The position numbers and the translations under genes are program-made. From positions 4,595-68,594 of the forward strand of contig CAMRWN010000001.1 of assembly GCA_947054455.1 (NCBI GenBank): a stretch of DNA of 64,000 nucleotides, written 5' to 3'. The notes beneath the pieces are model-generated. The model ran no database searches. It saw only the letters and a program-made list of their open reading frames with translations, and was not told where the DNA came from. Positions 3,641 to 42,946 of this stretch are shown piece by piece; positions within the stretch are counted from its first letter, which is position 1; every line of letters begins with the position of its first letter. This DNA is from an uncultured Alphaproteobacteria bacterium (lineage in GTDB: Bacteria; Pseudomonadota; Alphaproteobacteria; Rs-D84).

Positions 3641-4225
3641 ATGAATAACATATTAACAAAAGAATTAAAAGACGCACTTAAACAGCACGAAGGAGTTAAA
3701 GAGCATCCTTATTTGGACTCGAAGAGGATTTTAACCATTGGAATTGGGAATAATGTAAGCAAAGCGGAAAATTTTATGGCACTAAATTTATTGGACGCTA
3801 AAGACGGCCATACTTTAAGTGTTGAAGAAAAAGAAAGTCTGTACGCCCAGATAATGTCCGATATTCAATCGAACAGTTTTTCAGAGAAAAATTATTCGCA
3901 ATATCATGTTCCAACGGCAGAAATAGAAAATAAATTCAATCAGCAACTGGAACAATCGTATCACGAACTGGAAAGAAAGATTCCCGACTTTCAGGCATTG
4001 CCGATATCGGTACAACAGGCTTTATTGGATATGCAGTTTAATATGGGCAATTCCGCCTTTCAGCCGACAGCGCAAACAATCCAAGGTCGCACGTATTTAG
4101 GATGGCCAAAATTGTTCGATGCCATAAAACGCCATGATTGGTCAACTGCTGCAAAAGAATCCAGGCGCAAGGACGTCCAGCCCGACAGAAACCAATGGAC
4201 ATATAATAAATTTATACAGGCATAA
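3641..4225 (+). CDS. GH24 (T4/lambda-type) lysozyme
   Basis: N-terminal LKQHEGVKEHPYLDSKRILTIGIGNNV matches the E...D...T-I-G-x-G catalytic region of phage lysozymes. No signal peptide. Confidence 0.75.
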   Translation: MNNILTKELKDALKQHEGVKEHPYLDSKRILTIGIGNNVSKAENFMALNLLDAKDGHTLSVEEKESLYAQIMSDIQSNSFSEKNYSQYHVPTAEIENKFNQQLEQSYHELERKIPDFQALPISVQQALLDMQFNMGNSAFQPTAQTIQGRTYLGWPKLFDAIKRHDWSTAAKESRRKDVQPDRNQWTYNKFIQA

Positions 4226-39674: not shown

Positions 39675-39722
39675 TGTCAATATATAGTCGTCAATTCGAT
39701 AAAAATTCACCATATTTTGTGT
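39675..39722. promoter_or_regulatory. putative NrdR box pair (distal)
   Basis: tgtcaatatatagtcg (39675-39690) and tcaccatattttgtgt (39707-39722). Centres are 32 bp apart. Both resemble the NrdR palindrome acaCnATATATnGtgt as I recall it. Confidence 0.45.
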
Positions 39723-39904: not shown

Positions 39905-39953
39905 AAACAATATATTGACAAGGAATTAAGAAAAAGACCACTACATATTGTGT
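39905..39953. promoter_or_regulatory. putative NrdR box pair (proximal)
   Basis: aaacaatatattgaca (39905-39920) and ccactacatattgtgt (39938-39953). Centres are 33 bp apart. The pair ends 26 nt before the nrdD start. Confidence 0.5.
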
Positions 39954-39978: not shown

Positions 39979-42012
39979 ATGGCAGAAGTACAAAACGAAG
40001 TAAAAATACAGATTCTACCTACACTTACGACAAAGCTGGTCGCTGTTCAAAAGCGCTCCGGCGAAACGGTTCCGTTTGACGCCAAGAAAATATTCGAAGC
40101 GATAAAAAAGGCCGTGGCCGTAACCGGTGAAATAACAGAAGACCTTGTCATATCCATAACGCAAAACACATTGAACGCATTGGATGCGGCATTCGCCGGT
40201 AAAACCCCCAAGGTGGAAGAAATTCAGGAAGCCGTCATACACTCTCTGATGGACGCGCACGCCCACAAAACCGCAGAGGCATACATAATATACCGCCAGA
40301 AACGCAGCGAAATTCGCAACGCTGCGATTGATGCGGTGGAAATAATTGAAGGCTATGTCGACGGCAGCAACTGGCGCATCAAGGAAAACGCCAACATAGG
40401 ATATTCAATCGGCGGATTGATTCTGCGTACGTCCGAACGCGTCACGGCGGAATACTGGCTGAACCTGTACCCGCGCGAAATTGCAGAGGCGCATAAAAAC
40501 GCGGCGGTTCATATTCACGATTTGGGCTGGCTGACGGGATACTGTGCGGGCTGGTCTTTGCGTGAACTGTTATACGAGGGATTTAACGGCGTTGCGGGCT
40601 ATCTGCAATGCGAACCGGCCAAGCACATGGCCACCGCGATTTCACACATGGTGAACTTTCTGGGGACGCTGCAGAACGAATTTGCCGGCGCACAGGCGTT
40701 TTCATCGGTCGACACTTATCTGGCCCCATATGTCAGACTGGACAACATGTCATATGCGGATGTAAAGAACGCGATGCAGACACTGGTCTTTAACTGCGCG
40801 GTACCATGCCGTTGGGGAACACAGACACCGTTCATAAATTTCACGTTTGACTGGACCTGCCCCGAAGATTTGAAAAACCAGCATCCTTTTGTCGGGAAAA
40901 AGCAAATGGATTTCACATACGGCGACCTGCAGGCGGAAATGGACATGCTTAACAAGGCATTTCTGGAGGTTATGGCCGAAGGCGATGCAAATGGTCGGCC
41001 GTTCACGTTCCCAATCCCGACATACAACATCACTCCGGATTTCCCGTGGAATCATCCGAATGTAAAACCGCTGTTTGATTTGGCTGCAAAATACGGAATA
41101 CCTAATTTCCAGAATTTCCTGAATTCGGATTTGAATCCGACGGATGTTCGCTCAATGTGCTGCCGGTTGCGACTGGACGTGCGCGAACTGCTGAAACGTG
41201 GCGGCGGGTTGTTCGGTTCTGCGGAAAAAACCGGCTCTATCGGCGTGTTTACAATCAATCTGGCACGCCTGGGCTACACGCACAAGGGCGACCGCGAAGG
41301 TCTGTTCACGGAACTGAAGCGTCTGTTGGAACTGGGGCGCGACCAGCTGGAAATCAAACGCAAGATTATCAGCAAGCACATGGAAAATGGCCTGTATCCG
41401 TTTACGCGCCGTTATCTGGGCAACTGGAACCACCACTTTTCAACAATCGGCGTAAACGGTGCGAATGAAATGGTGCGCAACTTTACAAACGACCGTGAAA
41501 ACATCGCGACGCCCATGGGTAAAAAGCTGGTGCTGGATGTAATGGATTTCATCAACAATCATCTGGCAACATTCCAGGAACAGACCGGCAACCTCTATAA
41601 TTTGGAGGCAACGCCCGCCGAAGGCTGTTCCTACAGATTTGCAAAAACCGACGTCAAGAATTTCCCGGACATCATCACCGCGGGTACCAAGGACGCGCCG
41701 TATTATACGAACTCGACACAGCTGCCGGTGAACTTTACCGACGACCCGTTTGTCGCGCTGGAACACCAGGAAGAACTGCAGCGTAAATACACCGGCGGAA
41801 CGATGTTGCACCTGTATATGGGTGAACCGGTATCCAGCGGGGAAGCCGCACAGAAAATTGTACGCACGATATTTGAAAACTATCGCATACCGTACATGAC
41901 GCTGACGCCGACATTCTCAATCTGTCCAAAGCACGGATATCTGCCCGGCAAACATGAATTCTGTCCGAAATGCGACGCGGAAATCGCCGCAAATCAGAAC
42001 CAGGAACAATAA
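39979..42012 (+). CDS. nrdD: anaerobic ribonucleoside-triphosphate reductase, large piece (lacks the glycyl-radical tail)
   Basis: ATP-cone-like N-terminus, class III RNR core, C-terminal Zn-ribbon region (CPKHGYLPGKHEFCPKC). Ends at TAA 42010-42012, before any RxxG[FY] glycyl-radical motif. Confidence 0.9.
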   Translation: MAEVQNEVKIQILPTLTTKLVAVQKRSGETVPFDAKKIFEAIKKAVAVTGEITEDLVISITQNTLNALDAAFAGKTPKVEEIQEAVIHSLMDAHAHKTAEAYIIYRQKRSEIRNAAIDAVEIIEGYVDGSNWRIKENANIGYSIGGLILRTSERVTAEYWLNLYPREIAEAHKNAAVHIHDLGWLTGYCAGWSLRELLYEGFNGVAGYLQCEPAKHMATAISHMVNFLGTLQNEFAGAQAFSSVDTYLAPYVRLDNMSYADVKNAMQTLVFNCAVPCRWGTQTPFINFTFDWTCPEDLKNQHPFVGKKQMDFTYGDLQAEMDMLNKAFLEVMAEGDANGRPFTFPIPTYNITPDFPWNHPNVKPLFDLAAKYGIPNFQNFLNSDLNPTDVRSMCCRLRLDVRELLKRGGGLFGSAEKTGSIGVFTINLARLGYTHKGDREGLFTELKRLLELGRDQLEIKRKIISKHMENGLYPFTRRYLGNWNHHFSTIGVNGANEMVRNFTNDRENIATPMGKKLVLDVMDFINNHLATFQEQTGNLYNLEATPAEGCSYRFAKTDVKNFPDIITAGTKDAPYYTNSTQLPVNFTDDPFVALEHQEELQRKYTGGTMLHLYMGEPVSSGEAAQKIVRTIFENYRIPYMTLTPTFSICPKHGYLPGKHEFCPKCDAEIAANQNQEQ

Positions 42013-42051
42013 ACAAACAACACACACAACACAAAAGGGAGGAAAACAAAA

Positions 42052-42243
42052 ATGCAAGCCGCAACGACAAACACACAAAGAACAAAGTGCGAAATCTTTT
42101 CACGTTCCATGGGATTTATCAGACCAGTTTCTAATTTCAATATCGGCAAGTATTCAGAATTCTGCGAGAGAAAAATGTTTAAAGAAGGCAACTGCCTAAC
42201 AACAGGCGCGCGCCACACGGATTTGATGAAAAAAGCGGCTTAA
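42052..42243 (+). CDS. stand-alone NrdD C-terminal glycyl-radical segment
   Basis: CEIFSRSMGFIRPVSNFNIGKYSEFCERK matches the NrdD C-terminal glycyl-radical region. Same frame as nrdD. GGGAGG (42037-42042) lies 9 nt before the ATG. Confidence 0.7.
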   Translation: MQAATTNTQRTKCEIFSRSMGFIRPVSNFNIGKYSEFCERKMFKEGNCLTTGARHTDLMKKAA

Positions 42244-42247
42244 TAAA

Positions 42248-42946
42248 ATGCGCGACATACAAATCGGGGGATTGGTATCATTTACGACCATCGACTATCC
42301 GGGCAAACTGGCTGCAGTAATCTTCTTGCGTGGTTGTCCGTTGCGATGTGCGTATTGTTCCAACCCCCATTTGTTGGACATTGGCGACGGCGAATATGAC
42401 CCGGGAAAAGTATTCGAATGGCTTACATCCCGCGTCGGCAAACTGGAAGCCATCGTATTTTCCGGGGGCGAGGCATTGATGCAGGGCGACGCGCTGATTG
42501 AATATATGAAACGCGTAAAAAATCTGGGATTTAAAATCGGCCTGCATACGAACGGATTTTATCCGGACGTACTGATGCGCGCCGCCCAGACCGTCGACTG
42601 GATTGGTCTGGATTACAAGGCCACGCGCGACAAATACCTGGAACTGACCGGGAATGCGATTGCGTATGATAATATGATACGCTCGCTGGAATCCTGGCTG
42701 CAGACAGGACGCGATATAGAGGTTCGTATAACCTGCGATCCGCGCTTTATAGACCGGGCCGCCCTGCACGACATCGCCAGTGATTTACATTCGCGCGGCG
42801 TAAAAAATATCGCCGTGCAAAAATACATACCGCATTTCGAAGACAACGCCCACGGCACAACCGCCGACCAGCGCAACCAGTTCTTTGACGACGAAATGCG
42901 CAATACCCTAAACACTATGTTTGAATCGGTTGTCTGGCGGGAATAA
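42248..42946 (+). CDS. nrdG: anaerobic RNR activating protein (radical SAM)
   Basis: FLRGCPLRCAYCSNPHL cluster motif, VFSGGEAL. Lies directly after the nrdD pieces. Confidence 0.88.
   Translation: MRDIQIGGLVSFTTIDYPGKLAAVIFLRGCPLRCAYCSNPHLLDIGDGEYDPGKVFEWLTSRVGKLEAIVFSGGEALMQGDALIEYMKRVKNLGFKIGLHTNGFYPDVLMRAAQTVDWIGLDYKATRDKYLELTGNAIAYDNMIRSLESWLQTGRDIEVRITCDPRFIDRAALHDIASDLHSRGVKNIAVQKYIPHFEDNAHGTTADQRNQFFDDEMRNTLNTMFESVVWRE

Follow-up and report, generated by a model that had tools for sequence, protein, structure and literature searches.

In those class III ribonucleotide reductases (RNRs) that have been described, the glycine that bears the radical belongs to the catalytic chain (“Glycine in enzyme”, PMC4390871), and stand-alone proteins with a glycyl-radical domain have been reported for the formate lyases only (PMC4390871; PMC13450708). 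Here, we describe an nrdD locus in which this glycine is located outside the catalytic chain; the locus lies in a 64,000-nucleotide (nt) stretch of DNA from an uncultured gut alphaproteobacterium of the lineage Rs-D84 (contig CAMRWN010000001.1, positions 4,595 to 68,594), the whole of which we refer to as “the window”. The canonical class III NrdD/NrdG systems, as known from phage T4, Escherichia coli, Thermotoga maritima, Prevotella copri and Streptococcus thermophilus, share with the window locus the ATP-cone, the barrel, the finger-loop cysteines, the zinc ribbon, the R-x-x-G-[FY] motif and the adjacent radical S-adenosylmethionine (radical-SAM) activase; in the canonical systems, however, the radical glycine occurs within the catalytic chain, whereas here it occurs on a separate polypeptide of 59-63 amino acids (aa) with its own start. 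Judged by its sequence, the window system appears to have the barrel, the zinc ribbon and the activase of a class III RNR, the sole exception being that the motif is found off the catalytic polypeptide.

Small stand-alone homologues of a radical domain that act in trans, presumably activated by the cognate activase, are known as cofactors of pyruvate formate-lyase (PFL), i.e. GrcA/YfiD and Y06I of phage T4; like the small protein of the window they consist of a radical domain, but they are homologous to PFL and not to NrdD, and the partner PFL has a radical domain of its own, which GrcA replaces after damage. An earlier note on this DNA, made from the sequence alone, had likened the small protein to GrcA/YfiD: the likeness holds for the stand-alone radical domain, but not for the role of a spare, since the large chain never has its own domain and the small protein would be obligate; the phage-borne small genes without a nearby nrdD, described below, would be the closer analogue of a spare part. 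A catalytic chain divided near its C-terminus into adjacent genes is also found in the class II RNR NrdJa/NrdJb of Pseudomonas aeruginosa (PMC9669993), but that class depends on B12, and NrdJb is a zinc-finger/IscU-like C-terminal region for reduction, not a radical site.

The features of the window locus are the following, listed by position in the window, strand and identity:

39979-42012, + strand: nrdD-large, the class III RNR catalytic chain (677 aa, from the list of open reading frames, ORFs), without the glycyl-radical segment; stop codon TAA at 42010-42012
40045-40311, + strand: ATP-cone, residues 23-111 (Pfam PF03477, 69.3 bits)
41149-41178, + strand: finger loop RSMCCRLRLD with the presumed thiyl-radical cysteine(s), which aligns with a T. 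maritima NrdD loop, ...ASCCRL...
41923-41973, + strand: zinc ribbon CPKHG-x9-CPKC (Cys/His...Cys/Cys), residues 649-665, aligning with C...H...CPVC of T. maritima
41986-42009, + strand: low-complexity tail AANQNQEQ of the large chain, differing in length and sequence between species
42013-42051, + strand: intergenic spacer, 39 nt, 64% A, with the Shine-Dalgarno sequence GGGAGG at 42037-42042, located 9 nt ahead of the ATG at 42052
42052-42243, + strand: small subunit (63 aa), a stand-alone NrdD glycyl-radical domain (Pfam NRDD, positions 531-562 of 562)
42097-42117, + strand: glycyl-radical motif FSRSMGF (Gly21 codon GGA at 42112-42114), aligning with RIVGY of T. maritima NrdD
42184-42240, + strand: C-terminal extension EGNCLTTGARHTDLMKKAA of the small subunit, 19 residues, a predicted helix that ends in Ala-Ala
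42248-42946, + strand: nrdG, the radical-SAM activase (232 aa), with CX3CX2C (CPLRCAYC) at 42335-42358; TIGR02495 NrdG2

The large chain has the C-terminus ...CPKHGYLPGKHEFCPKCDAEIAANQNQEQ, followed by the TAA; its last residues read ...TPTFSICPKHGYLPGKHEFCPKCDAEIAANQNQEQ, with the stop falling 12 residues past the zinc ribbon, and beyond the TAA no further stop occurs in this frame over the 13 codons (TNNTHNTKGRKTK) that lead to the ATG of the small ORF. The complete small protein is MQAATTNTQRTKCEIFSRSMGFIRPVSNFNIGKYSEFCERKMFKEGNCLTTGARHTDLMKKAA, which includes CEIFSRSMGFIRPVSNFNIGKYSEFCERK, and nrdG starts 4 nt past its ORF. The earlier note had placed nrdD with its TAA, zinc ribbon and low-complexity tail, the 13 open codons, the Shine-Dalgarno sequence at its distance from the ATG and the start of nrdG exactly where we find them. 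It had also identified the small ORF as the canonical glycyl-radical segment of NrdD, which the profile searches bear out: the large and the small ORF are complementary pieces of one family's profile, the former covering positions 1-529 of 562 of Pfam NRDD (566.8 bits) and 4-654 of 684 of NCBIfam PRK08270 (1023 bits, cut-off 548), and the latter covering the end of Pfam NRDD and positions 648-682 of 684 of PRK08270. The radical motif is absent from the catalytic polypeptide, whose profile matches stop at positions 529 and 654, respectively. The activase exceeds the equivalog cut-off of TIGR02495 NrdG2 (168.8 against 131.15 bits). Between nrdD and the small ORF, no promoter-like or terminator-like site was found in the scan of the + strand, and the Rfam scan of the region has a sole match, a chance miRNA that lies upstream of nrdD and on the opposite strand.

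A scan of one genome per species of the GTDB has returned 240 related stretches, and the counts that follow refer to the best 80 of these 240, whose NrdD is 86-90% identical and which belong to Candidatus Enterousia and other uncultured gut Alphaproteobacteria (from humans, chickens and ruminants); counts over 81 loci consist of the window and the 80 relatives, and the frame count consists of the window and 79 of the relatives. The layout of split nrdD, small ORF and nrdG occurs in 80/80 species-level loci, with a spacer of 28-58 nt and a small ORF of 59-63 aa. A sense codon in place of the stop, or a continuous ORF, is seen in none of the approximately 100 loci inspected in the lineage, the large chain being without a radical domain throughout. 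The conservation of the stop, the spacer, the Shine-Dalgarno sequence and the ATG in related genomes had been left as a question by the earlier note: the last two are present in 81/81 loci (GGGAGG in 64, AGGAG in 12 and GGGAG in 5), at a distance of 6-9 nt in 80 loci and of 11 nt in one. The small ORF has an independent translation start of its own, and nrdG is tightly linked to it in cells, starting between -11 and +9 nt relative to the stop of the small ORF across the 81 loci; nrdG is probably translationally coupled to it.

The reading frame shared by the two ORFs in the window, on which the earlier note had laid weight as “one in-frame TAA”, is a coincidence of the strain and misleads as to the nature of the split: the ORFs are in frame at only 31 loci and out of frame at 49 (n=80), where about 27 would be expected in frame by chance, and 12 of the in-frame loci hold two or three stops between the ORFs. 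Within the species, two of five assemblies have an extra A right behind the TAA (TAAAAC versus TAAAC, window positions 42013-42016), i.e. a spacer of 40 nt, and this indel of 1 nt ends the shared frame and leaves both ORFs unbroken (L001, L004). The 63-aa peptide itself has been assembled identically from five unrelated sequencing runs.

Both pieces are under purifying selection. The pairwise ratio of nonsynonymous to synonymous substitution rates (dN/dS) is 0.07 for the small ORF (dS ~1.4), 0.04 for its canonical radical segment and 0.14 for its 19-residue C-terminal extension, and it is 0.014 for the C-terminal 102 codons of the large chain. The genomes of Enterousia are smaller than 1 Mb, purely fermentative and without nucleotide biosynthesis (PMC12306168), and the retention of three tightly packed genes in genomes of this size argues for a function.

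The split is also found far outside this lineage. A relative from a metagenome, P0434 (61% identical), has an nrdD of 687 aa, a gap of 92 nt and a 63-aa ORF followed by nrdG, and the 120/120 best homologues of P0434 (67-72% identical to it) end shortly past the zinc ribbon; the zinc ribbon, whose metal binding is predicted, is present in all of the 120 + 120 inspected homologues. In three more clades, the small ORF is 69, 53 and 68 aa long and lies 32, 3 and 57 nt behind nrdD, respectively. In a rumen alphaproteobacterial clade, a 182-aa protein without a Pfam or NCBIfam match occurs after the small ORF, in the place of nrdG (stretch L177, 5433-5981); the activase of this clade must be located elsewhere or have been replaced. 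In a collection of plasmids and chromids, a homologue of the large chain is present in 165 records and a match to the small protein in 162; the split was verified in these cultured bacteria:

Ralstonia solanacearum: large chain 681 aa; small ORF 58 aa, in an ATGA overlap with the nrdD stop, out of frame
Cupriavidus necator H16, pHG1: large chain 676 aa; gap of 142 nt; small ORF 66 aa, then nrdG
Shinella zoogloeoides: large chain 681 aa; small ORF 59 aa, a separate ORF
Bradyrhizobium diazoefficiens: large chain 669 aa; small ORF 63 aa, a separate ORF
Azospira sp.: large chain 679 aa; small ORF 59 aa, a separate ORF
Paracoccus denitrificans: large chain unannotated in the gene table of the collection; small ORF from ORF analysis, a separate ORF, out of frame

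In R. solanacearum, the small ORF (L180, 4028-4204) is unannotated in record CP022756.1 and a “hypothetical protein” in other records; in CP022756.1, nrdG is annotated from a GTG at 4167, so that the two genes overlap by 38 nt, and this start may have been called too far upstream. In Allochromatium vinosum, plasmid pALVIN01 has a lone coding sequence of 69 aa, annotated “nrdD”, beside a CHAP-domain gene (L182, 2980-3189), with neither a large chain nor an activase seen in the 6 kb around it. The genome paper of C. metallidurans gives NrdDG as Rmet_5137 and Rmet_5139, skipping the intervening gene (PMC2864759). The same paper places the nrdDG of strain H16 on pHG1 and cites Siedow 1999 for NrdDG being essential for complete denitrification (PMC2864759); as the nrdDG region of pHG1 is reportedly required for full denitrifying growth, there is indirect evidence for a split-type enzyme that works in vivo.

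Phages carry the small gene as well. Our scan of IMG/VR has found a relative of the small protein on 390 viral contigs, and in the best 80 of these, 77 have the small ORF with neither nrdD nor nrdG within 5 kb, many of the contigs ending before 5 kb. The viral small ORFs are 48-125 aa long (L088, 4001-4192; L086, L089, L090; L094-L172) and often lie at a contig end; at 40 non-redundant viral loci, the neighbours include endolysin genes at 11 or more loci, as well as holin, Rz-like spanin, tail and integrase genes. PHROGs places these proteins in phrog_4132, “unknown function”, and the GenBank phage collection holds two weak matches and no more. “Acetobacter sp. CAG:977”, an alphaproteobacterium from the gut, has an integrated prophage with the small gene; compared by eye, the core of the prophage peptide is ~80% identical to the cell-encoded small subunit from the split locus of a gut alphaproteobacterium. 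In a Caudoviricetes phage of 174 kb, NrdD is tail-less, has 801 aa including a 142-aa intein (CFTGDTK...SHN) and ends in ...CPKCDAELLAKKANK (L178, 1209-3614, - strand), and 2.7 kb upstream of nrdD there is a radical-domain gene of 50 aa (L120, 4986-5138); nrdG was not seen in the stretch of this phage that was read. The distance of 2.7 kb between these two phage genes speaks most clearly for products that act as separate proteins. Across the loci, the arrangement depends neither on a shared frame nor on linkage.

The earlier note had proposed looking in databases for stand-alone ORFs that resemble the tail of NrdD, and 248 stand-alone homologues of the small ORF, of 57-90 aa, have been found. 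A profile of the small protein has 2435 matches (E <= 0.001) among 1.84 billion representative proteins; the best 150 of the 2435 are all 47-118 aa long, and every one inspected begins with Met. The idea that the stand-alone tails form a family apart from the tails of fused NrdD, prompted by these best 150 being all short, was abandoned, as fused proteins of Acidithiobacillus, Acidiphilium and Actinomyces share the signature. The residues conserved in the family are all present in the small protein: R10, C13, E14, R18, M20, G21, R24, P25, N30, G32, K33, E36, R40 and F43, with R18, M20 and G21 invariant in one family alignment (A3) and S17-S19 invariant in another (A2). The finger loop RSMCCRLRLD of the large chain is likewise kept in the family consensus (A4), and both this CC loop and the ...EATPAE... 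glutamate resemble those of T. maritima NrdD. Cys13 (codon 42088-42090), located eight residues ahead of the radical glycine, is shared by the three fused relatives and by almost every stand-alone protein, and T. maritima NrdD has Val at this position; a role in metal binding, disulfide formation or tethering is possible.

The fused relatives within PRK08270 (Acidithiobacillus ferrooxidans, 627 aa; Acidiphilium multivorum, 627 aa; Actinomyces oris, 659 aa) show where the chain is divided. Their barrels are ~61% identical to the large chain of the window and 75-76% identical to that of Ralstonia, and their tails bear the CEVWTRVMGYHRPVSSFNIGK signature, as the small protein does, but each is one continuous ORF. 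The junction reads ...CPRCAAEEPATIPRVCEVWTRVMGYHRPV... in these proteins, and the stretch from the zinc ribbon to the radical segment reads ...CPRCAAEEPATIPRVCEVWTRVMGYHRPVSSFNIGKQSEF..., with 11-12 residues between the last zinc-ribbon cysteine and the CEVW segment; these sequences place the split point in the 11-12-residue linker. It is within this linker region that the split forms have their stop, spacer, Shine-Dalgarno sequence and ATG, as well as a variable leader, and T. maritima NrdD aligns alike. In a midpoint-rooted neighbour-joining tree of the barrel region, computed without support values, the fused forms are nested among the split ones and the deepest branches are all split, which hints at a secondary re-fusion of split NrdD.

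A search of the Protein Data Bank (PDB) with the small protein alone gave no match, and the family profile gave a weak match to T. maritima NrdD (E = 0.18), with whose radical segment the small protein aligns; it is also near-identical to the tails of the fused relatives. The Pfam scan has no match to Gly_radical, and lists NRDD and one weak, sub-threshold Lipoprotein_10. An AlphaFold2 model of the concatenated large and small sequences, from an alignment of 53 rows, has a mean predicted local distance difference test score (pLDDT) of 78.5 and a predicted template modelling score of 0.66, and Foldseek matches it best to class III RNRs, namely those from S. thermophilus, P. copri, T. maritima and T4. 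In this model, a β-hairpin predicted with low confidence has Gly21 (model residue 698) at its tip, flanked by short strands of residues 693-696 and 699-702, and would correspond to the expected glycine hairpin; the C-terminal extension is modelled as a helix (residues 728-739).

Taken together, we consider it probable (about 0.85), on the strength of sequence comparisons, that the locus encodes an obligate two-subunit class III RNR whose radical domain is supplied in trans, together with its activase; of the three readings offered by the earlier note, it is this one, a two-piece enzyme with the radical peptide acting in trans, that the comparative evidence strongly supports. The 677-aa chain would provide the ATP-cone, the catalytic barrel with the finger-loop cysteines and the zinc ribbon, ending in a short linker, and the 63-aa radical segment would be translated separately, from its own strong Shine-Dalgarno sequence and ATG. 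The small protein would then dock non-covalently in the barrel, at the site that the C-terminal radical domain occupies in a fused NrdD; NrdG, with S-adenosylmethionine, would take the hydrogen from the Cα of Gly21, and the glycyl radical would oxidise a finger-loop cysteine to a thiyl radical, with which the reduction of nucleoside triphosphates (NTPs) would start. In this enzyme family, O2 breaks the chain at the radical glycine; by analogy with GrcA and pyruvate formate-lyase (PMC13450708; PMC12288474), such cleavage would cost the cell a 7-kDa peptide instead of the 77-kDa enzyme.

The two window ORFs lie in one frame with a single TAA between them, as they would if a normally fused nrdD had been broken by a sequencing or assembly error or by a nonsense mutation of recent date that reinitiation or readthrough rescues, two readings also considered by the earlier note; with five independent assemblies agreeing with the window, 80 species-level genomes and distant cultured Proteobacteria split alike, and strong purifying selection on both ORFs at a dS of ~1.4, we regard both the mutation and the error as refuted. 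The same shared frame could speak for a fused product, made by readthrough, frameshifting, translational bypassing or split-intein trans-splicing: the spacer is A-rich and has a Shine-Dalgarno-like element such as assists landing in the bypass of T4 gene 60, the last sense codon (CAA) is also codon 2 of the small ORF in the window, and inteins can occur in NrdD genes. Readthrough and frameshifting are rejected, given that the frame relation is random and that in-frame loci often hold two or three stops; moreover, nrdD and the small ORF may overlap in ATGA, lie as much as 142 nt apart or, in the phage, be separated by 2.7 kb. Bypassing would have no need for an ATG and a Shine-Dalgarno sequence, yet both are kept in every locus, and the last codon of the large ORF is found among codons 2-6 of the small ORF in 25/80 loci against 24.0 +/- 3.3 for shuffled pairings. 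A split intein is likewise rejected, there being neither room nor motifs for it: the tail of the large chain (8-20 aa) and the leader of the small protein (~9-12 aa) are too short and variable, no His-Asn precedes Cys13, and the Pfam scan of either ORF has no intein family. A fused product by any of these routes is therefore very improbable.

If the large chain were inactive or free of a glycyl radical, the small protein could instead be a regulator or a decoy of NrdG; this is improbable, as the small protein keeps the residues conserved in the family, matches the radical segment of T. maritima and the fused tails as described above, and is tied to nrdG by gene order and spacing. Slightly less improbable, but still unlikely, is that the small protein is a GrcA-like spare for a full-length NrdD encoded elsewhere and the tail-less nrdD is a relic: GrcA/YfiD serves pyruvate formate-lyase in this way (PMC13450708), and small genes with no nrdD close by are found in prophages and on a plasmid. 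Against it, purifying selection acts very strongly on the tail-less large chain (dN/dS 0.014), this chain's gene always adjoins the small gene and nrdG in genomes of less than 1 Mb, and a fused nrdD is absent among the 120 closest homologues, whole genomes not having been scanned for a second copy. This last limit also weighs against the two-subunit enzyme that we favour, as do the low pLDDT of the model over the small protein (about 50-70) and the oxygen-economy rationale, which is plausible by analogy with GrcA and not a result.

Among the hosts of the split enzyme are denitrifiers and gut organisms that encounter oxygen at changing levels. We tentatively extend the two-subunit reading, at a little under even odds, to a large clade of gut Alphaproteobacteria and denitrifiers, C. 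necator H16, P. denitrificans and R. solanacearum being among the model denitrifiers in it: the radical would be carried by a diffusible 6-7-kDa “cartridge”, which NrdG would charge off the enzyme and which would be cheaply replaced after O2 damage, and temperate phages would add copies by their lysis genes in order to boost or take over the synthesis of deoxynucleoside triphosphates by the host. If this were so, the cartridge would be the first glycyl-radical protein with a spare-part or auxiliary role outside the formate lyases. A naturally split enzyme would also define a phage gene family that has had no name, phrog_4132, and would suggest a cheap route of repair where oxygen fluctuates. 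The separate peptide would also offer a handle on how the buried radical domain of glycyl radical enzymes leaves the barrel for the activase and then returns, as a radical domain that is a peptide of its own can be added, labelled and swapped.

In full-text searches and in reviews and phylogenies of RNRs and glycyl radical enzymes, we came across neither a split NrdD nor an NrdD radical protein that stands alone, the subscription literature and RNRdb being outside this search. The split NrdD is thus apparently widespread and visible in databases (the small coding sequence is already in RefSeq), but unrecognised. In many records the small gene is unannotated or “hypothetical”; where the NCBI annotation pipeline calls it, the label is “nrdD: anaerobic ribonucleoside-triphosphate reductase”, and NCBIfam has no dedicated model for the small protein. 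Surveys that discard proteins shorter than 400 aa would miss it, and one family-wide phylogeny dropped all sequences of <400 aa (PMC9531940).

A few additional observations concern the small subunit and the surroundings of the locus. The C-terminal dipeptide AA of the small subunit (...KKAA; window positions 42235-42240) is found in 79/81 Enterousia-type loci, and an ...AA terminus also occurs on several distant stand-alone homologues. This end resembles the C-terminal determinant of ssrA-type ClpXP degrons, and the small subunit could, by this analogy, be turned over rapidly. Upstream of nrdD, CCACTACATATTGTGT at 39938-39953, 26 nt before the start, fits the NrdR-box consensus with 2 mismatches, and a second NrdR-box-like site lies at 39707-39722 (3 mismatches); these matches are weak, an equal number across the window being reached in 2/100 shuffles. 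Enterousia-type nrdD genes (88-89% identical) are also present on contigs labelled “Bacteroides fragilis” and “uncultured Muribaculaceae” (L017, L053), names that are probably errors of binning or labelling. Lastly, genes of the thioredoxin system are located beside two of the related loci.

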